IMG/VR virus record: IMGVR_UViG_3300048895_000026 | Location: 1-29,322 of that record | Origin: a virus | Taxonomy: Duplodnaviria; Caudoviricetes | DNA: 29,322 nt | Reading direction: 5' to 3' (one strand) | In this document: positions 727 to 24,525 of the stretch, piece after piece | Numbering within the stretch: the first letter of the stretch is position 1 | Layout of the letters: each line of letters opens with the position of its first letter | Notes under the pieces: model-generated | Database searches by the model: none | Told to the model about the DNA's origin: nothing | The model's input: the letters and a program-made list of their open reading frames with translations, nothing else | Position numbers and translations under genes: made by a program

Positions 727-1428
727 TTAAGCTACTTTAAAGCCACTAAATATAGATGCTGGAGTAAATGCACTTGCAGATATAGCCCCACCATTAAGTT
801 GAAAATTACCTGTTCCGTCTGCAAGAGGTTGAACTTTAACAGTATCTCCAGCGGTCATCTGCATTGTCCATGCAAAACTATTGATTGCTGAAGCTACAGT
901 AAGTTGAGCGGCTCGAAATGATTGTACACTACCTGTAACTGCCATCAAAAACTGTGTCGTACCCACAGCAGTTACAAAAAATAAAGTACATGAAAATGAA
1001 TAAAATCCTGTTGAAGGAGCTGTAAAAATTCCCGTTGAAGTATTATATCCTGAACCTACATTTACAACCGTCGTATCAAAAATAACTACATTTGAGGTAT
1101 TATTTGATGCTGGGTAATTTGTGGTAGATGCGGATAAATAAGCTTGAAAATATGCGCTTGAACCTCCTCCACTCGCTGGTGAAGATGTCCAAATAGAGCC
1201 GTTACTTGTTAATACATTCCCATTTGCTCCAGGCGATGTTAATCCTGTTCCACCTAATGCCGTACTTACTGGACTTATCAATGCTAATGTAGGATTTCCA
1301 GAAACGCCACTACCATTACTAATAGTAGCGCCTGCGCCCGCTGTAAGCGTTCTACCCTTAAATAGATTTATTCCATCAAAAGATTGGAAACCTGTTTCGC
1401 TAATATTTAGACTATTTGCTGCTGTCAT
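727..1428 (-). CDS. Short tail fibre / receptor-binding protein with C-terminal C1q-like domain
   Basis: C1q-type signature YFQAYL...VIFD...NVGSGYNTSTGIFTAPSTGFYSFS...MQMTAGDTV; GNVLTSNG fibre motif. Confidence 0.75.
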   Translation of the reverse strand: MTAANSLNISETGFQSFDGINLFKGRTLTAGAGATISNGSGVSGNPTLALISPVSTALGGTGLTSPGANGNVLTSNGSIWTSSPASGGGSSAYFQAYLSASTTNYPASNNTSNVVIFDTTVVNVGSGYNTSTGIFTAPSTGFYSFSCTLFFVTAVGTTQFLMAVTGSVQSFRAAQLTVASAINSFAWTMQMTAGDTVKVQPLADGTGNFQLNGGAISASAFTPASIFSGFKVA

Positions 1429-1437
1429 ATATTCTCT

Positions 1438-1965
1438 TTAAACAACTGTCCAAGATCCCATTGACTCGACTGCATGCCAAGTAAGGTCCGATAATTTAAA
1501 AACCAACCCTAACATACTACCTTGAACATTCGCTGTTGCTGTACCTCCTAAAATTGATATTTGACCACCAACTTCAATTCGTTGATCTGCCGGAGCCTTT
1601 ACAGTTACTACAGAAGGTAAAGTTAAAGAAACATCAACATAAAAAATGATCGTATTTCCTAATACAAGAGCTGGAGGCCCTAAAGTAGAAGGTAAAGTGC
1701 CTGTTAATGCGACATTACAAAAATAACCTTTCTGCACTTCTGCTGTAAAATCTCCATTTTCTTCAACCCATGCAAATCCATCATTTTTTACATTAATTGT
1801 AACTGTCCCTGTTCCCACATTTCCTGTGGTCGTTGCGCCAATGCCACCAGCAACATTTAATACATTTGACAATGGGATTACATTCGCCCCATCGTCTGTA
1901 TGAAATGTGGTAGGCACAGATGGAGGCAAAGAACCTGCGCTTACGCCTACAAAAAATTGACTCAT
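1438..1965 (-). CDS. Tail-associated structural protein
   Basis: Likely start MSQFFVG at 1965 (AGGAGG SD) rather than 2007; beta-rich; lies in the fibre cluster. Confidence 0.6.
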   Translation of the reverse strand: MSQFFVGVSAGSLPPSVPTTFHTDDGANVIPLSNVLNVAGGIGATTTGNVGTGTVTINVKNDGFAWVEENGDFTAEVQKGYFCNVALTGTLPSTLGPPALVLGNTIIFYVDVSLTLPSVVTVKAPADQRIEVGGQISILGGTATANVQGSMLGLVFKLSDLTWHAVESMGSWTVV

Positions 1966-1972
1966 AAGCCTC

Positions 1973-2347
1973 CTAACGATATCCGATAATTTGAAGAAAA
2001 GTAGCATGTGCAGCAGTTTTTGCCCAAATTAATTGCCCTTGGGCTACATTAAGAGTTCCTGTTCCATAGCTGCCACCATCATAATGGTTTGTTTGGAAGT
2101 CTACTATCAATGTTCCTAATGGAGGAATAAAATCATGATCGTTAACACCATCTAGACTAATATCAATAGAGGCTGTTGTGCTTGGATTCCAAATTTTAAG
2201 AATCTTTGCTGTATCACTGAAACCTATTGTACTGGCATTTGATTGCGTTCCTGCGCCATTAATAACTTGGTAAGAACCAGTTAAAGAAGCAGGATCAAAT
2301 TGAGCTTTCAAAACACACTGTACTCTACTTAATTCATCTGTTGCCAT
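1973..2347 (-). CDS. Small virion/tail protein (beta-rich), function unknown
   Basis: 124 aa ORF coupled to the upstream stop (TAATG); tail cluster. Confidence 0.55.
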   Translation of the reverse strand: MATDELSRVQCVLKAQFDPASLTGSYQVINGAGTQSNASTIGFSDTAKILKIWNPSTTASIDISLDGVNDHDFIPPLGTLIVDFQTNHYDGGSYGTGTLNVAQGQLIWAKTAAHATFLQIIGYR

Positions 2348-2550
2348 TATTCCCCCTGGATAGGTTCGGGCGACGTTTCTTCTTTAACTTCTGGATCAGA
2401 TTGTTTTGCTGCATTTTTTATATCATTTGCAATTTTGATAATTTCCACACCAAGTTTCTCTAAGTCATCTGCTACTATATTTACATTGCAAAGAACATGA
2501 AATATTTGTTCACCGATTTGAATTGATTTAATTAAAAGTTGATTGAACAT
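2347..2550 (-). CDS. Small hypothetical protein (possible fibre chaperone)
   Basis: Start MFNQLL at 2550 with GAGG SD; directly follows the long fibre gene. The function is a positional guess. Confidence 0.5.
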   Translation of the reverse strand: MFNQLLIKSIQIGEQIFHVLCNVNIVADDLEKLGVEIIKIANDIKNAAKQSDPEVKEETSPEPIQGE

Positions 2551-2567
2551 GTTTTTCCTCGATTTTT

Positions 2568-2584
2568 GGGGGAATTTCACCCCC
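2568..2584. other. GC-rich hairpin after the long fibre gene
   Basis: GGGGG-AATTTCA-CCCCC; no U-tract on the minus (sense) strand, so more likely an mRNA-stabilising stem than a terminator. Confidence 0.4.
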
Positions 2585-2590
2585 TAGTTA

Positions 2591-4957
2591 TTATGTAGGT
2601 CTTACAATAAAATAAGCATATGTAGAAACGTCAGCCGTTTGTGTGCTTCCGGGAGTCCCTAGAATAACACTTGTCACAGTAAAGCTAGTTGCATTGCTAA
2701 TAGTATATGTTAGCTCACCTAATGTTGTAGATGCTGCAACACCTGTTCGAGTTAATATAATAACATCACCTGTTGCAATATTCGTATTGGCTATTGTCTG
2801 AGTACCAGCAGTCAAAACGCCTGTTCCAATAAAATCAGTAACAGCACCACCATTGACAAGAAGTGTTTTAGCTACTGAAGCAATTGAAAGATGTCCACCT
2901 GTTACCGATACATTGCCAGAACCCGACTGAAGGTTTAGAGATGCTGCGCCATTCGTTGTACCGACTGTAACAACGTTTGCTGCTGCACCTGTTCCTATGT
3001 TAATTGTTTTAACTCCAGTACTTGCCGCCACATTAAGTGTTTGTACACCTGTACCACCTGCAATAGTCATAATGCCGGTATTCGCGCCAGTCCCACCAAA
3101 GTTAATAGTTCCTGAGGTAGTTGATGGAGCAAATGTATAGGCTGAAGTAGCAGCACCATCAAGACTAAAGTTGCCTGTGCCTACTAGCAAACTCATGCTT
3201 GCAGCGCCTGAAACTGTTCCTATAGTAACTACGTTAGCAACAGCGCCATTTGCAATATTAACGGCTTTTGCTGATCCTGCACCACTTGCAATATTTACTG
3301 TTGTCGCTCCTGTACCTGCACCAATTGCCACAATATTAGTACCTGAAGAACTTCCAAGCGTAATAGTTCCCGTTTCTGCAGTACCCCCAATTGTAATTGT
3401 GCCTGTAGTAGTTGATGCGCCGATCGTGTAGGTTGATGTAGCAGCACCATCAAGACTAAAGTTACCAGTTCCAACTTTTAAAGCTAAAGAGGCAGCGCCT
3501 GTTACCGTACCAATTGTGATAACGTTATCAATTGCGCCAGTGCCAATATTGACTGTTTTAATACCAGTTCCACCAGTAGCAATAGCAACTGTTTGCGCGC
3601 CTGTTCCAGGAGCAATAGAAATTGTTCCAGTTTGGAGTCCAGTTCCGCCCACTGTAATTGTTCCAGTAGTCATCGCTGTGCCTAGATTAATCGCTCCCGC
3701 TACTTGAACGGCTGCAATATTAACTGTACCAGCTCCAGAACCATTGGCAATAGCTACTGTATTAGTTCCAGAAGATGAACCTAAAATTAAGTTACCAGTC
3801 TGTGCAGTTCCTCCAATAGTAATTGTACCTGTGGTAGTTGCTGCACCAATCGCATAAGTAGATGTAGCTGCACCATTAAGAGCAAAGTTGCCAGTTCCTA
3901 CATTGATATTTACCGCTGTGGCTCCAGTAACATTTCCGATGGTGATCGTCTTCGCAATTGTTGTACCAATAGTTATTGGACCTGTTCCAGAATCGATAAC
4001 AACTGCACTAGCTCCAGTTTGGTTACCAATTGTGACAGTATGAGCAATAGCATTAGTTCCAATGTTGATAGCTCCAGTTCCAGCATTAAGGACTAAACTT
4101 GTTCCACCTGTTGAATTTCCAAGCGTTATTGTTCTTGCTGCTGCACCTGTTCCTATATTGATATTTTGGGCAACAGCATCGTTACCAATGCTAATTACGC
4201 CAGCTGAAGAATTAAGCTCTAAAACTCCTGCGGAATCAATCAAAACTGTATCAGCAGAGTTTAGAACAATATCACCTGTTCCAGTAGAAGTTACTGTAAA
4301 CGATCCTGTGCCTGTGTTCACAGCAACAGCCGTTGCGCCAGTTACATTACCTAGAGTAATTGTTCTTGCTGCTGCACCTGTTCCTATATTAATTGCATCT
4401 GCCGAGGCATCAGCGCCAAGGTTTAGCGCTGTTCCTGCTGTATTGATTGTCGCGCTTGCGGAACCTGTGTAAAGTCCAGAAGATGCTAAGGTAGTGAATG
4501 AACCAGCTCCACCTGTAACAGGAAACCCAGCTGCGATGGCTGCTTTTACTTTTAAAGGAGTCATCGCTGTATTATCATCAGTTCCTGTTGTTGCCTCTGT
4601 ATTGGTAGATAATTGACCGATACCGGATACAGTTTCGCTCCATGCTGGCGCGCCAGCAATAGCTAGATTGTCAGCATAAACCTTAGTAGCTACAGGTTCG
4701 CTATTGTCTGTTAGAATTACTGTCCCATATGTTGTGGTTGTAGCATGATTTCCACCATCAGTATTCCAATTTCCAGCACCCGTTGTTTCATATACAATTT
4801 TAGGATTGACGCTATTGTCTAACCATCTTGTACCAGACGGAAAGATATCTAATGATGTTGGGGCTCTCATTGGATCAAATAGAAATTGAGGATATACGAA
4901 GCCATCAAGATTACTCCCAAAGGCTCCATTTTGAAAATTACCAAGTGACGCTGTCAT
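2591..4957 (-). CDS. Long repetitive tail fibre/spike (beta-solenoid-like)
   Basis: 788 aa, Gly/Thr/Ala/Ile-rich, many INIGTGAAA / TITIGGT repeats; AGGAG SD. Confidence 0.75.
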   Translation of the reverse strand: MTASLGNFQNGAFGSNLDGFVYPQFLFDPMRAPTSLDIFPSGTRWLDNSVNPKIVYETTGAGNWNTDGGNHATTTTYGTVILTDNSEPVATKVYADNLAIAGAPAWSETVSGIGQLSTNTEATTGTDDNTAMTPLKVKAAIAAGFPVTGGAGSFTTLASSGLYTGSASATINTAGTALNLGADASADAINIGTGAAARTITLGNVTGATAVAVNTGTGSFTVTSTGTGDIVLNSADTVLIDSAGVLELNSSAGVISIGNDAVAQNINIGTGAAARTITLGNSTGGTSLVLNAGTGAINIGTNAIAHTVTIGNQTGASAVVIDSGTGPITIGTTIAKTITIGNVTGATAVNINVGTGNFALNGAATSTYAIGAATTTGTITIGGTAQTGNLILGSSSGTNTVAIANGSGAGTVNIAAVQVAGAINLGTAMTTGTITVGGTGLQTGTISIAPGTGAQTVAIATGGTGIKTVNIGTGAIDNVITIGTVTGAASLALKVGTGNFSLDGAATSTYTIGASTTTGTITIGGTAETGTITLGSSSGTNIVAIGAGTGATTVNIASGAGSAKAVNIANGAVANVVTIGTVSGAASMSLLVGTGNFSLDGAATSAYTFAPSTTSGTINFGGTGANTGIMTIAGGTGVQTLNVAASTGVKTINIGTGAAANVVTVGTTNGAASLNLQSGSGNVSVTGGHLSIASVAKTLLVNGGAVTDFIGTGVLTAGTQTIANTNIATGDVIILTRTGVAASTTLGELTYTISNATSFTVTSVILGTPGSTQTADVSTYAYFIVRPT
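3147..3463. repeat. 26-bp exact direct repeat inside the fibre gene (3147-3172, 3438-3463)
   Basis: gtagcagcaccatcaagactaaagtt twice, 291 nt (97 codons) apart. Confidence 0.85.
4128..4390. repeat. 32-bp exact direct repeat inside the fibre gene (4128-4159, 4359-4390)
   Basis: attgttcttgctgctgcacctgttcctatatt twice, 231 nt (77 codons) apart. Confidence 0.85.
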
Positions 4958-15194: not shown

Positions 15195-16163
15195 TTAGCT
15201 TGGGCTAAATGTTGTAGCGTTTAGTCCTGAGATCCAGTTTTGGTTTGTAATCGCACGAGCGATAGCAAACTTAGCATACAACTGGCTATTCTGTGCTACG
15301 TTAGAGACTACCCAAGGTGGACGGTATCCAATAACAGCGGTGTAGTTGTTCTGCTCAATCTTGGCAGCAGCTTCAAGGCCGTACATAGGAATAGTGTAAA
15401 CAGTTCTTCCGAGTGTAGAAATGCCAGGAGTTTTTGCGCCTTTAGATGATACAAAGAAGCGGAAACGGCTAATAGAGCAATACTCCTCAGGGCGTAAGCC
15501 TGCTTGTGAAGGATATGCGTTCTTAAGAAGAACTCCTTGCACTTTCTGAAGGTCATTTGTCAAATTAGTCGAAGCAAGAGCGATAAAGGCGTCTCTTGTC
15601 GGGCCGGTCGAAAACTTATCCATAGCATCGATAGATACAAGCATTGTGCGTGCATCATTGCCGAGCAGGATAGTTTCAATGTTATTGACATCGTTAAGAG
15701 AGATATTGCTTGGTTGATCTCCGTTAGTTCCACCTGTACAGTTAATGTACGATACAGAGGAGCTGAAAAGATCGCGCATTAGCAAGTCTTCTTTCTCACG
15801 AAGCCATTGACCAAGAAGAGCTGTAAATTTGGTTAACGTTTTGGAATTCTCATAAAGAATAACTTGTTCGTTAGTAGTAATAGATTTAGCATAGATTTCC
15901 ATTGTTGCATCAATGTCAGTTCTTTGGGGGACCTCAGAAGCGGGGTCTAGGCCACTTCCATCGAGTTGACCGCCATCGGTAGATAGACGTTCAAAACGGG
16001 ACATTCTTGTAGTCTTACCGATATAGCTTTCAGCGTGATGTAGATCTACACCGAAAGAGTGGATAAGGTTGAACATCGGGGTACTTAACAGGTCCTCCGC
16101 TGCTTGCACAGGCAATTCTGGAGCCATATTGTAGGTATTTGTGATACCTGTAGGAAATGACAT
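15195..16163 (-). CDS. Major capsid protein (N4 gp56-like)
   Basis: 322 aa from ATG 16163 (AAGGAG SD); GKTTRMSRFERL, LGQWLREKEDLLMRD, EYCSISRFRF motifs; synteny. Confidence 0.8.
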   Translation of the reverse strand: MSFPTGITNTYNMAPELPVQAAEDLLSTPMFNLIHSFGVDLHHAESYIGKTTRMSRFERLSTDGGQLDGSGLDPASEVPQRTDIDATMEIYAKSITTNEQVILYENSKTLTKFTALLGQWLREKEDLLMRDLFSSSVSYINCTGGTNGDQPSNISLNDVNNIETILLGNDARTMLVSIDAMDKFSTGPTRDAFIALASTNLTNDLQKVQGVLLKNAYPSQAGLRPEEYCSISRFRFFVSSKGAKTPGISTLGRTVYTIPMYGLEAAAKIEQNNYTAVIGYRPPWVVSNVAQNSQLYAKFAIARAITNQNWISGLNATTFSPS

Positions 16164-16278: not shown

Positions 16279-16307
16279 AAGATATGATTATGGACATTAA
16301 TTGTCTA
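16279..16307 (-). promoter_or_regulatory. Possible sigma70-type promoter for the capsid gene
   Basis: TAGACA-17 nt-TATCTT just upstream of the hairpin array. Confidence 0.4.
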
Positions 16308-16895
16308 ATTTATTTTATAGTCTTCATACTCCTTTAAGAAATCTAACGCCCATTTTAATTTATCCTCTACTCGCTGCCCGGCAGGTTGCGAGGTGGACCA
16401 TAATTCTAAGTTTTCAATCCTATTGTCATCTTTGATTCCGTTCTTATGGTGAACATTTTCACCCTTATTTAAGGGTCTTCCTAAATGTTTTGACATAACA
16501 AATGTATGCTCATAGATTCTCCCTCTTTTCTGAGCATTAGGATGGTCAACTTTATTAATGTAAACATATCCATGTGGATCTCTATGCCCGCTTCCGTTTG
16601 GTGCCTTAAATTTTTTAGGGATATTCAGATCAATATTATTTTCAATCCTGTAATCAGTAAATTTTTTATGATTTAAAATCTTTCTATAACATACATGTGA
16701 GCAAAATTTTGCTTTCCATTTTTTACTGAAATAATCAACCCCACAGCATTCACATTTTTTTTTAAAATGATCTGGCGTTATAGTCCCATACTTTTTTAAT
16801 AATCCATAACACGCATAACAGCAATTCTTTGAAGTGCTTCCCGTGTATTCTTTAAGACAATGTTGACATGTTTTTTTCTTGATATTCTCTGACAT
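16305..16895 (-). CDS. HNH endonuclease with two N-terminal Cys-rich Zn-binding repeats
   Basis: YEHTFVM...LGRPL..GENVHHKNGIKDDNRIENLELW; two CxxC...CxxxC-type units. Confidence 0.9.
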   Translation of the reverse strand: MSENIKKKTCQHCLKEYTGSTSKNCCYACYGLLKKYGTITPDHFKKKCECCGVDYFSKKWKAKFCSHVCYRKILNHKKFTDYRIENNIDLNIPKKFKAPNGSGHRDPHGYVYINKVDHPNAQKRGRIYEHTFVMSKHLGRPLNKGENVHHKNGIKDDNRIENLELWSTSQPAGQRVEDKLKWALDFLKEYEDYKIN

Positions 16896-16924
16896 AAACC
16901 ACCTGCGTTTAACCTAATTGAAAA

Positions 16925-16975
16925 GAATACGTCAGCTGCTAGGTAACAGTTTTCGGATGCCTCCTAGACGTATTC
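16925..16975 (-). ncRNA. Structured leader RNA element, copy A (three-way junction)
   Basis: GAAUACGUC-UA-GGA GGCA UCC-GAAAA-CUGU UACCUA GCAG-CU-GACGUAUUC; co-varies with copy B. Confidence 0.7.
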
Positions 16976-16983
16976 GAAATTGA

Positions 16984-17190
16984 CTATTTTGTTTTTTTGT
17001 CCAATTGATATTCCAAAATCTTTATTTTCAAACTCATATCTCTTTTTTCTTTTTGAAGCTTATAGAGATCGTCGGCAATATATTCTTTGTTCCTTATGCA
17101 TTTAGCCCATCCTTGATAATTGTAATAACAGCCAAATGCCAGAAAGATACATGCAACGATTAAATATAGGTTGAATATTTCGTTTTTCAT
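16984..17190 (-). CDS. Small membrane protein (N-terminal TM helix plus coiled coil)
   Basis: LYLIVACIFLAFGCYY hydrophobic stretch; ATGA overlap with the upstream gene. Confidence 0.6.
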   Translation of the reverse strand: MKNEIFNLYLIVACIFLAFGCYYNYQGWAKCIRNKEYIADDLYKLQKEKRDMSLKIKILEYQLDKKTK

Positions 17191-17390
17191 TTTTTCCCTT
17201 CCTTAATTAGCTGCAAAAACTCTGAATGTAATTGATCGGCCCTTGCATTCACTGCATTTATACTCTGCACATTAGATATGATCATAGTGATAAGGATAGC
17301 TGCAATCGCTAAGTTTACACCCACAATTGCTAGAGTATCTGCATGTGATCGAAAGAAATTAGGGCGATGATAATTCTTGTTTCTTGACAT
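17187..17390 (-). CDS. Small membrane protein (TM plus coiled coil), paralogue of 24161..24334
   Basis: DTLAIVGVNLAIAAILITMII...ARADQLHSEFLQLIKEGKK; GAGG SD. Confidence 0.7.
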   Translation of the reverse strand: MSRNKNYHRPNFFRSHADTLAIVGVNLAIAAILITMIISNVQSINAVNARADQLHSEFLQLIKEGKK

Positions 17391-17420
17391 AGTAACCTCT
17401 GTAGTTAATCTGAATGAAAG

Positions 17421-17471
17421 AATACATCAGGCTGTCAGAGGCAGCTTTTCGGAAGCGATCCTAGATGTATT
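17421..17471 (-). ncRNA. Structured leader RNA element, copy B (three-way junction)
   Basis: AAUACAUC-UA-GGA UCGCU UCC-GAAAA-GCUG CCUCUGA CAGC-CU-GAUGUAUU. Confidence 0.7.
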
Positions 17472-17479
17472 GAATAAGT

Positions 17480-17508
17480 AGCATAACCTATCTTCGGATT
17501 TAATTCAA
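17480..17508 (-). promoter_or_regulatory. Sigma70-type promoter immediately upstream of RNA element B
   Basis: TTGAAT-17 nt-TATGCT; predicted +1 falls a few nt before stem P1. Confidence 0.55.
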
Positions 17509-18192
17509 TCCTTTTCTAGCCCTTTCCATCCTTGCCCAGTTTTCAGCCTTTCGATCTTCGGTAAGTCTAGCCGCTGGCATTGCGCTGCCGCCTTGTGATG
17601 TTCCTGGTGTTGACATGGACGCTGGCTTCATCAAATTCCTATCAGCCTTGCTAGAGTCTTTCTGCGAATCTACATTCGGAATGAAACGTTTCACAGCTTT
17701 ATAGATAGCTGACCATTTATCGAAACCATCTGGCATATGCTTAAATGGCACCGCAACTTCTGGATAATGATACTCAAGATAGTCTAAATTCTCTTCACTA
17801 CAGACTTTGTTGAAGTCGGAATAAACAGAACGTAGTTTTTCCGGGTATTGCCTAGCTTCCTGCTGTTGTCTCTCTGCAATGTATGCCTTTTCACGTTCAA
17901 GAATGATCTCTTGAATTCTACGCTCGAGCCTAGCCTCTTCTGATTCGTCTATCTCTTGCGCTTGTTGCGTGGGCTTAGCTGTCATCGCTTCTAATGCCGC
18001 TCTTAATGCTGCTGCCTCTTCTGCTTTCTGCTCTGCTCTCCTGTCGGCCTCTTCTCTTGCCTTGCGTTCATTCTCTCTTTGCTCTCTAAATGCCTTCCAG
18101 TTCGCTTGATTCTCTTCGGATTTAATCGGTGGTGCAGGTTCTGCTTGAATGTTTTTAACTTCTGGGGTATTTTCTGGGGTAGTTGGATTCAC
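17500..18192 (-). CDS. Capsid scaffolding protein
   Basis: GTG at 18192 with AGGAG SD; Glu/Ala/Arg coiled coil; between portal and MCP. Confidence 0.65.
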   Translation of the reverse strand: MNPTTPENTPEVKNIQAEPAPPIKSEENQANWKAFREQRENERKAREEADRRAEQKAEEAAALRAALEAMTAKPTQQAQEIDESEEARLERRIQEIILEREKAYIAERQQQEARQYPEKLRSVYSDFNKVCSEENLDYLEYHYPEVAVPFKHMPDGFDKWSAIYKAVKRFIPNVDSQKDSSKADRNLMKPASMSTPGTSQGGSAMPAARLTEDRKAENWARMERARKGLN

Positions 18193-23806: not shown

Positions 23807-23902
23807 GAGACTATCAAAGCAAAGTTCGCTTGATGACCTGTTAACTCAGGCAGGCTTGAGCTGGTGAAGATAAACTTAACCAAACAAAATAGGAAAATTA
23901 AA

Positions 23903-24142
23903 ATGAAAAAAATCAATTCTCTTCAAGATCTTAGACGTTACGTTAGCAATGTTCAATTAACTGAATTTCAAAACAAGCTATATGGATATGAAGATTTTGA
24001 AGATATGGTTACAGCTTATACAGATGAATTTCTTGCATTTCTTAGAGATGAGCAAGGCTTTGAATGGGGTGATGATTTGGAAGATTTCGATATTAGAGAT
24101 CAAGACGAAAGAGCGATTCTTAGAGCCATAGATAAATCATAA
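23903..24142 (+). CDS. Acidic hypothetical protein
   Basis: Likely start ATG 23903 (AGGA SD); 79 aa. Confidence 0.65.
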   Translation: MKKINSLQDLRRYVSNVQLTEFQNKLYGYEDFEDMVTAYTDEFLAFLRDEQGFEWGDDLEDFDIRDQDERAILRAIDKS

Positions 24143-24160
24143 ACAAAATAGGAGGTTAGC

Positions 24161-24334
24161 ATGGATACATTAGCAATCTTATCAATTATCGGGACAGTTT
24201 TAGGCTCTGCATATTACATACACAGAGAGATGCAAGCTGATATGAGATCATTTAGAGAAGAAATCAAGACTCAAAGTGCAAGATCAGATCGTCTTTATGA
24301 AATGTTCTATGAACTATTAAAGGAGCGTAAATAA
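24161..24334 (+). CDS. 57-aa TM plus coiled-coil protein (not in ORF track)
   Basis: AGGAGG SD; MDTLAILSIIGTVLGSAYYI...QSARSDRLYEMFYELLKERK; TAATG coupling to the next gene. Confidence 0.8.
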   Translation: MDTLAILSIIGTVLGSAYYIHREMQADMRSFREEIKTQSARSDRLYEMFYELLKERK

Positions 24335-24525
24335 TGTCTAAAAAAATATGGGCCAAAGGCCGTAAGCAGCCACATTGTACAATTGCTGTATGCAGTGAAT
24401 CTAGAGACATGGCTAATCGATTAGCACAAGAAGCTGGCATGTCGATGAAAGAGTTTATCTACACTCTTCTTGATCGTTATGACATAGAAAGTACGGCTAC
24501 AAGAAATTACTTAAAAAAAATGTAG
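24334..24525 (+). CDS. Ribbon-helix-helix (Arc/CopG-like) DNA-binding protein
   Basis: TIAV strand, then SRDMANRLAQEAGMSMKEFIYTLL helix-G-x-S-helix. Confidence 0.6.
   Translation: MSKKIWAKGRKQPHCTIAVCSESRDMANRLAQEAGMSMKEFIYTLLDRYDIESTATRNYLKKM

Follow-up and report, generated by a model that had tools for sequence, protein, structure and literature searches.

The window, i.e., the whole 29,322-nt stretch of DNA analysed here, is a linear virus record that is ~78% complete, and profile matches showed that it encodes a terminase, a P22-like portal, RusA and a methylase. Two copies of a structured RNA leader, copy B and copy A, are located on the minus strand between a flanking gene ending at 17500 and the probable capsid gene starting at 16163, each ahead of a gene referred to below as its cargo (Table 1). 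The flanking gene had no match in Pfam or PHROGs and, by position only, would be the scaffold gene. Across 80 loci with close capsid relatives, the gap between the flanking gene and the capsid gene varied from 116 to 2,289 nt and changed in content; judged from these loci, the capsid-upstream gap is an insertion hotspot.

Table 1 Features of the two leaders and their surroundings in the window
Feature	Position	Strand	Basis or match
Left flank, conserved gene between portal region and capsid gene	17500..18192	-	Present in 76/80 capsid-relative loci
Candidate promoter TTGAAT-17-TATGCT before copy B	17480..17508	-	8/12 consensus; -35 within last codons of upstream gene
Copy B core, three-way junction, int-alpA member	17421..17471	-	Rfam match and fold
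Copy B site 1 UCAGA, predicted decoy, pairs with 3′ part of loop	17409..17413	-	Sequence and family covariation
Copy B site 2 CAGAGG, over SD of 67-aa gene	17396..17401	-	Sequence
Copy B cargo, 67-aa protein with hydrophobic segment	17187..17390	-	No family (Pfam, PHROGs)
68-aa protein, N-terminal hydrophobic segment, overlaps stop of preceding gene	16984..17190	-	No family
Copy A core, three-way junction, int-alpA member	16925..16975	-	Rfam match and fold
Copy A site 1 UAGGU, predicted decoy	16912..16916	-	Sequence and family covariation
Copy A site 2 AGGUGG (G-U pairs included), SD of HNH gene	16899..16904	-	Sequence
Copy A cargo, 196-aa HNH endonuclease	16305..16895	-	Pfam HNH_3 E 5.9e-10; PHROG HNH E 1.5e-22
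Right flank, probable major capsid protein	15195..16163	-	26% to annotated major capsid protein, E 8e-8

Every part that the initial annotation had described was recovered in place on the minus strand. Copy B is laid out as P1 (8 bp; 17471–17464/17428–17421), UA, P2, GAAAA, P3 (4 bp) and CU, with the P3 loop CCUCUGA at 17441–17435 and the cargo AUG at 17390; copy A has a 9-bp P1 (16975–16967/16933–16925), the loop UACCUA at 16945–16940 and the HNH AUG at 16895. Folding of the 52-nt cores predicted the three-way junction for both, as had been described, with z −1.77 for copy B (12 of 200 shuffles as good) and z −3.04 for copy A (2 of 200). In the pseudoknot-free minimum-energy fold of copy B with its leader attached, P1 is lost and the P3 arm is paired to the Shine–Dalgarno (SD) sequence (z −0.61). 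The only matches in the window of a covariance model trained on a set including both copies were copies A and B. The promoter proposed before copy B is present at 17508–17480, and at 8/12 only it fell below the threshold of a consensus scan; likewise, the U-rich runs reported after P1 exist, with 5 T in 8 nt in the window copies, and no terminator was called at either copy. Upstream of copy A no −10-like hexamer was found, and this copy starts 9 nt past a stop codon, so that it is probably reached by read-through.

Database comparison retrieved 14 proteins for the 67-aa cargo of copy B, itself included; a 54% relative in locus L247 likewise sits after an element, and the best value against the Protein Atlas (0.82) serves as a lead only. 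The 68-aa protein has a 94% relative in L242. The copy A cargo is likely a free-standing homing endonuclease.

The leader of the capsid gene (window 16272–16195, minus strand) contains three tandem hairpins with YUCGY(C/A) loops, each after a CUGA/CAGA-like word. In 65 distinct capsid leaders (window plus 68 of 80 capsid relatives, L242–L320), 125 such hairpins were counted versus 18.4 (maximum 31) in 200 shuffles, and their stem sequence varies with pairing kept. They had no Rfam match at E up to 1 and are possibly an uncatalogued protein-binding or antitermination RNA; a second type of capsid leader, without the YUCGY repeat, occurs in other relatives. Elsewhere in the window, a 788-aa Gly/Thr/Ala-rich repeat protein (2591–4957, minus strand), probably a tail fibre, is the source of the largest direct-repeat families, and three small ORFs at 23864–24525 (plus strand), directly upstream of the terminase genes, are oriented against the remainder of the genome. 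One of these ORFs (57 aa) has a hydrophobic N-terminus and resembles the small genes of the insertion hotspot.

Assignment to the int-alpA family

Both copies belong to an already catalogued Rfam family, int-alpA (RF02996). Copy B scored 36.7 bits over 17471–17408 against a cut-off of 35.8, and copy A scored 36.8 bits over 16974–16912 in a 111-nt search, having been filtered out in larger searches; model positions 1–71 were aligned in both, and both margins were ~1 bit. The initial annotation had assigned the RNA to no named family and had set an Rfam match against its novelty; with both copies passing the gathering cut-off, the RNA has a name and its novelty is lost, by about one bit. Among 20 chosen homologue loci, 13 passed the RF02996 cut-off and none matched C4, and among 20 loci sharing the P2 of copy A, 5 passed and 3 more scored below it. 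The family is thus wider than its Rfam model, since many members score under the cut-off. It is also common: single patterns have matches in about 1,800 to 4,300 viral stretches, and ~44% of the loci found with the first pattern held the full element. The junction P1-UA-P2-GAAAA-P3-CU-P1′ was supported by pair counts on 60 members, which are partly circular because members were picked for P1 and P3. Its bases, which had been described as identical between the copies, are conserved across the family and not invariant: the apparent invariance was an artefact of the first patterns, and GAAAA was present in 63 of 112 elements when it was not selected for.

Rfam types RF02996 as 'Gene; sRNA'. The family name would imply a setting in phage or prophage-like DNA close to integrase or alpA genes; the record is a phage contig, but neither cargo is int or alpA, and integrases account for 3 of 95 homologue cargo genes. 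The motif reportedly originates in the 224-motif survey of Weinberg et al. 2017. A term search did not find 'int-alpA' in the main text of PMC5737381, as far as the text covered extends; in the excerpts covered, int-alpA appears in PMC12370729 only as genome annotation, and in PMC13612085 the term denotes genes. The literature search, in which few subscription papers were covered, returned no functional study of int-alpA and no account of two-site pairing, part of which the supplement of the 2017 survey may describe.

Other families were considered and rejected. The likeness to P1 C4 and P4 CI that had been suggested does not extend to membership: C4 (RF01695) gave no match to either copy at E up to 10, nor any at the cut-off in the 20 homologue loci, and an upstream target is lacking. 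IsrK gave no Rfam match. A metabolite riboswitch was set aside, as the junction GAAAA occurs in only 63 of the 112 elements chosen on UA, P2 and G, and the cargo is mixed and non-metabolic. The small RNAs of P22 (PMC13397905) were dismissed as a counterpart, as the element is absent from P22.

Covariation of the loop with two downstream sites

Set 1 was collected from 442 sources with a descriptor (P1 of at least 5 bp, UA, P2, GAAAA, P3 of at least 3 bp, CU) and comprised, among the matches listed, 101 distinct elements. Besides the window, their sources were 53 of 121 viral loci in one scan and 4 of 120 in a second, 36 of 120 genome loci and 6 of 80 loci with capsid relatives; the same descriptor gave 0 matches in 1.35 Mb of doublet-shuffled loci. 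The genome matches listed came from Proteobacteria, Planctomycetota, Acidobacteriota, Nitrospirota, Chloroflexota and one actinobacterial MAG. The loop was not used in choosing the other two sets: set 2, chosen on UA, P2 and G, contained 112 distinct elements, of which 81 had an unbroken P1 of at least 5 bp, and 58 distinct loops; set 3, sharing the copy A P2, contained 121 loci, with 90 distinct elements, 62 parsed, and 47 distinct loops. Kinship was handled in the covariation counts only by keeping distinct loops.

Analysis of set 1 revealed a Watson–Crick match of at least 5 bp between the loop and its own next 45 nt in 84 of 101 elements, compared with 21.6% of 10,084 swapped pairs, and a second non-overlapping match in 60 of 101, compared with 3.5%. 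The summed matches were 557 versus 397±8.9 for the best site and 457 versus 327±6.3 for the second, and 0 of 100,000 permutations were as high. In set 2, the best site was found for 56 of 58 loops (swapped, 23.6%) and the second for 37 (3.7%); for the 43 loops outside set 1, these numbers were 41 and 28. In set 3, the corresponding numbers were 37 of 47 (18%) and 18 of 47 (2.5%), and at 4 bp they were 47 and 43 (swapped, 56% and 23%). The permutation test and the two replicate sets agree with the earlier proposal, made from the two window copies, that the loop changes together with both downstream sites; by this comparison of sequences, the two-site loop match is real and non-random. No second site of at least 4 bp was found in 18 of the 101 set 1 elements, and one element (L028) was mis-parsed. 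Loop targets showed no cognate excess upstream, in three 45-nt blocks to 135 nt (means 3.70–3.77 versus 3.69–3.79 swapped), nor past +45 (22/99 versus 15.7%; 18/99 versus 16.3%). The loops are hypervariable, with 19 distinct loops among 22 elements with identical P2.

As for the window copies, foreign leaders matched the copy B loop as well in 4% (best site) and 2% (second site), and the copy A loop in 11% and 4%, respectively. The copy B loop together with one stem base (17440–17434) also has a 7-bp match, GUCAGAG, over the start of the copy A HNH gene (16893–16887). Matches of 7 bp occurred in 1.3% of swapped pairs, and this one is one of six within-locus cross pairs; it could reflect chance or cross-regulation.

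Two sites of at least 4 bp plus an ORF were present in 81 of the 101 elements, and 77 were classed as canonical, i.e., with both sites before the start codon and site 1 within 16 nt. In these canonical cases, the distance from the junction to site 1 was 16.0±2.3 nt and that from the end of site 2 to the AUG was 6.9±2.4 nt; the gap between the two sites was more variable (sd 4.1). Site 1 pairing reaches the 3′ strand of P3 in 71 of 81, an abutment that we take to be the geometry of an H-type pseudoknot. The two sites share 4–5 loop nucleotides in 63 of 81, so that one loop cannot hold both, in line with the mutually exclusive pairing of site 1 and the SD suggested earlier. The finer assignment, in which the 3′ part of the loop serves site 1 and the 5′ part the SD, survived as a tendency: 50 of 81 were shifted 5′, whereas 21 were in the same register and 10 were shifted 3′.

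The best anti-SD match was overlapped by site 2 in 62 of 77 and by site 1 in 0 of 77, a count that may be favoured because start codons were chosen with an SD score. An anti-SD match of at least 4 was present in 71 of 77, and in 13 of 77 after masking of site 2; in both window copies, site 2 covers 4–5 nt of the SD. Helix energies, taken as stacking sums with no pseudoknot loop terms, were stronger for site 1 in 43 of 77, equal in 21 and weaker in 13 (p 0.005). Of the window copies, B has its stronger helix at site 2, and in A the two helices are about equal. A simple timer with site 2 always the stronger helix was rejected, being true in 13 of 77; so was strand invasion of P3 by site 2, an idea prompted by the copy B fold, as 79 of 84 show none.

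A −10-like hexamer was located 12–23 nt before the junction in 42 of 98 elements (other bins, 6–10; shuffled, 23.4±3.8, maximum 37), which suggests that P1 often starts the transcript. The linker after P1 was 42% T and 6% G, and only 32 of 101 elements had at least 5 T in the 8 nt after P1. In stems, G-U exceeded A-C (40 versus 14; 141 of 200 parsed), which indicates that the element works as an RNA on the transcribed strand. At the base of P3, where the final base of J2/3 faces the initial base of J3/1, A·C was counted in 93 and G·U in 27 cases versus 4 and 4 (145 parsed from 200), and this exchange suggests an extra wobble pair. At three loci (L005:1557–1640, L008:1419–1490 and L072:1419–1490) the start of the element lies no more than a few bases from the 3′ end of a tRNA, so that tRNA processing could make its 5′ end; other elements (L047, L369, L394) come after a terminator-like hairpin.

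Cargo genes and mobility of the leader

In L242, whose capsid protein is identical to that of the window, copy A and the HNH gene were jointly absent, and in a contig of run X3 the site was likewise empty, at 16981. The insertion, which consists of copy A and the HNH gene (window 16981–16290), is precise, with an overlap of 3 nt where the empty site (L242:4850–4880 and run X3) joins. In run X4, a contig matched the copy A leader into the start of the HNH gene and diverged at 16882. Comparison of orthologous HNH genes (68–72% identity) revealed that their loops differ and that the sites match their own loop: the genes of L243/L577 (68% to that of the window) have the same P2, loop CAUCCUGA and sites UCAGG and CAGGA, and those of L319/L637 (70%) have loop UACUCUG and sites CAGAG and AGAG. 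In L642 (about 859–923, minus strand), a near-copy-B leader precedes an HNH gene 72% identical to the copy A cargo, which suggests that leaders have been swapped between cargo genes. The window thereby adds a clean case of a leader that travels together with its gene and of orthologues whose loops have changed.

With model R1, the element was detected in 10 of 80 loci with capsid relatives, and L319 was added by eye. Among more distant HNH relatives R1 detected it in 1 of 80, and among relatives of the 67-aa protein in 0 of 6, numbers to be read with the fact that R1 can miss divergent copies, as it missed L319. An obligate link between leader and cargo was rejected on these counts; on the loci compared, the leader is portable, not obligatory. 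The portability put forward in the initial annotation is borne out by one scaffold lying ahead of unrelated cargo and by the joint absence of leader and HNH gene in L242.

Among 95 homologue cargo ORFs, many of which end at the locus edge, 34 had a Pfam match: 15 HNH/GIY-YIG/NUMOD, 7 DUF1376 (which we take to mark replication proteins), 3 HTH_36, 3 integrases and one each of AntA, Rha, Dam, a regulator domain, DUF551 and a glycosyltransferase. Comparison of 21 Pfam-negative cargo ORFs with PHROGs added 4 HNH, 2 replication initiators and 1 primase. Of cultured phages, Enterobacter phage Tyrion (L442:2504–2555) and Salmonella phage BIS08P22 (L443:2500–2551) contain the element and P22 does not; related copies were found in 55 of 5,426 E. 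coli genomes, several ahead of DUF551 genes. The Tyrion, BIS08P22 and E. coli copies are tractable test systems.

Candidate modes of action and comparison with known systems

The reading to which we lean, with modest confidence, is that the int-alpA leader acts as a cis translational switch, in which decoy pairing keeps the SD open and loop–SD pairing closes it. Site 1, transcribed ~13 nt ahead of site 2, would capture the loop first as a pseudoknot (ON), and the loop would later exchange to site 2, covering the SD (OFF). The relative strength of the two 4–7-bp helices would set the amount of protein, and tight, short-lived output is predicted for copy B with its stronger site 2. Such a portable module might have been picked up by DNA-acting phage genes to limit their dose. 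The comparison fixes which pairings are selected, not the timing of their formation. Excerpts of PMC3014915 describe phage homing endonuclease genes held down by RNA structures that sequester the ribosome-binding site. On thermodynamic grounds alone, the cis model would have most members ON and would need a trigger, because site 1 is stronger in 43 of 77, and a cis-only role fails to explain the loop diversity, because each change needs three matched mutations.

Those two points bear on a second reading, possible but doubtful, in which the leader makes its own trans repressor in the manner of C4 and CI: site 1 would neutralise the loop in cis, and P1-trimmed, ~50-nt RNAs with a free loop would bind site 2 of later transcripts, giving a burst and then shut-off, with the loop sequence as specificity code. 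This would supply the trigger that the cis switch lacks, and it is consistent with the −10-like hexamer ahead of the junction in 42 of 98, with the mostly stronger helix at site 1 and with loops that are hypervariable while the scaffold stays constant, and that differ between orthologous genes too. However, a duplex of only 4–7 bp is short for trans binding, there is no general terminator after P1 (32/101), and no upstream target of the CI kind was found. Precedents, according to excerpts of the sources, are c4 with P1/P7 heteroimmunity (PMC12197685) and the short form of IsrK, which acts on its own long form (PMC4825925). In its broadest version, which we likewise regard as rather unlikely, int-alpA would be a widespread reprogrammable self-timing repressor, the cis decoy letting a new gene be translated, trimmed free-loop copies silencing in trans, and the 5–6-nt loop serving as a fast-diversifying address code. 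Each nuclease, initiator, integrase and antirepressor gene would then get its own RNA-only feedback and immunity channel.

An attenuator had also been suggested earlier; transcription attenuation, with the junction and U-run terminating and loop pairing deciding read-through, appears improbable. The linker after P1 is U-rich and G-poor and a U-run is part of the Rfam consensus; nevertheless, just 32 of 101 elements reached at least 5 T in 8 nt, terminator calling gave none at the window copies, and site 2 tracks the start codon. Moreover, the sites would not yet be made at the termination point, because both lie downstream of the U-run. Quite improbable, too, is the opposite polarity, in which the site 2 pseudoknot would activate translation as in IncI1/IncB repZ and site 1 would keep the gene OFF. 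Precedents that require a pseudoknot for initiation are described in excerpts on repZ (PMC8053102) and timP (PMC11228461), replication initiators are among the cargo, and 13 of 77 members keep an anti-SD match of at least 4 with site 2 paired; yet pairing at site 2 takes away the SD in most members (from 71 to 13 of 77), including 4–5 nt of it in both window copies. A DNA-level role, in which the cargo protein would recognise the loop and sites as three short repeats for operator binding or recombination, is highly improbable: much cargo binds DNA and the leader and HNH gene move as one, but the excess of G-U over A-C in stems on the transcribed strand (40 versus 14), the wobble exchange at the P3 base, the tie of site 2 to the SD and the unrelated cargo on one scaffold all argue against it.

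If the cis switch is correct, it would explain how nucleases, initiators and integrases are kept in check by phages and their selfish genes with no need for a protein regulator, and a 50-nt natural scaffold with a swappable loop would be at hand. The added value here lies in a quantified design of decoy plus SD, and the two-site covariation gives three short sequences with predicted effects.

Relative to RF02996, the fold and junctions of the window copies are the same, and the consensus tail AgGG complements the loop CCuU and corresponds to site 1. However, the 71-position model ends at site 1, short of site 2 and the start codon, its printed structure is without the loop–site pairing (pseudoknots may just not be printed), and the window cargo, an HNH endonuclease and a small membrane protein, is unlike the int and alpA of the name. 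In int-alpA, one loop has two alternative 4–7-nt targets, unlike c4, which we assume to use two separate antisense segments. As described in parts of PMC8198154, PMC12197685 and PMC4825925, the c4 RNA of P1/P7 (RF01695) and CI of P4 are, like the window RNA, located just upstream of the controlled gene, and their loop complements the ribosome-binding region and sets specificity. Complementarity of the loop to the ribosome-binding region of the next gene was found here as well and is common to these RNAs; P4 CI, in the excerpt of PMC4825925, pairs with upstream seqA and downstream seqC, whereas int-alpA had no upstream excess within 135 nt. IsrK of Gifsy-1 is likewise a 5′ RNA that serves as a leader and possibly also as a short trans-acting form, but it activates and carries its own terminator (PMC4825925, in part), and Rfam gave no IsrK match here.

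The hairpins of T4-type homing endonuclease genes (I-TevI, mobE, segB), according to portions of PMC3014915, resemble the proposed cis switch in that an RNA structure likewise would limit translation of a homing endonuclease. They are simple hairpins, and that of I-TevI is relieved by a late promoter inside it, whereas here there is a junction plus a decoy and the candidate promoter is upstream of the whole element. In repZ (PMC8053102) and timP (PMC11228461), as far as the excerpts describe them, a hairpin loop likewise pairs with the downstream leader as a pseudoknot, with alternative conformations. Their pseudoknots allow translation, a separate antisense RNA acts to block them, and the repZ pseudoknot leaves the SD available; in int-alpA, by contrast, the second pairing covers the SD, with anti-SD matches of at least 4 falling from 71 to 13 of 77 on masking of site 2.
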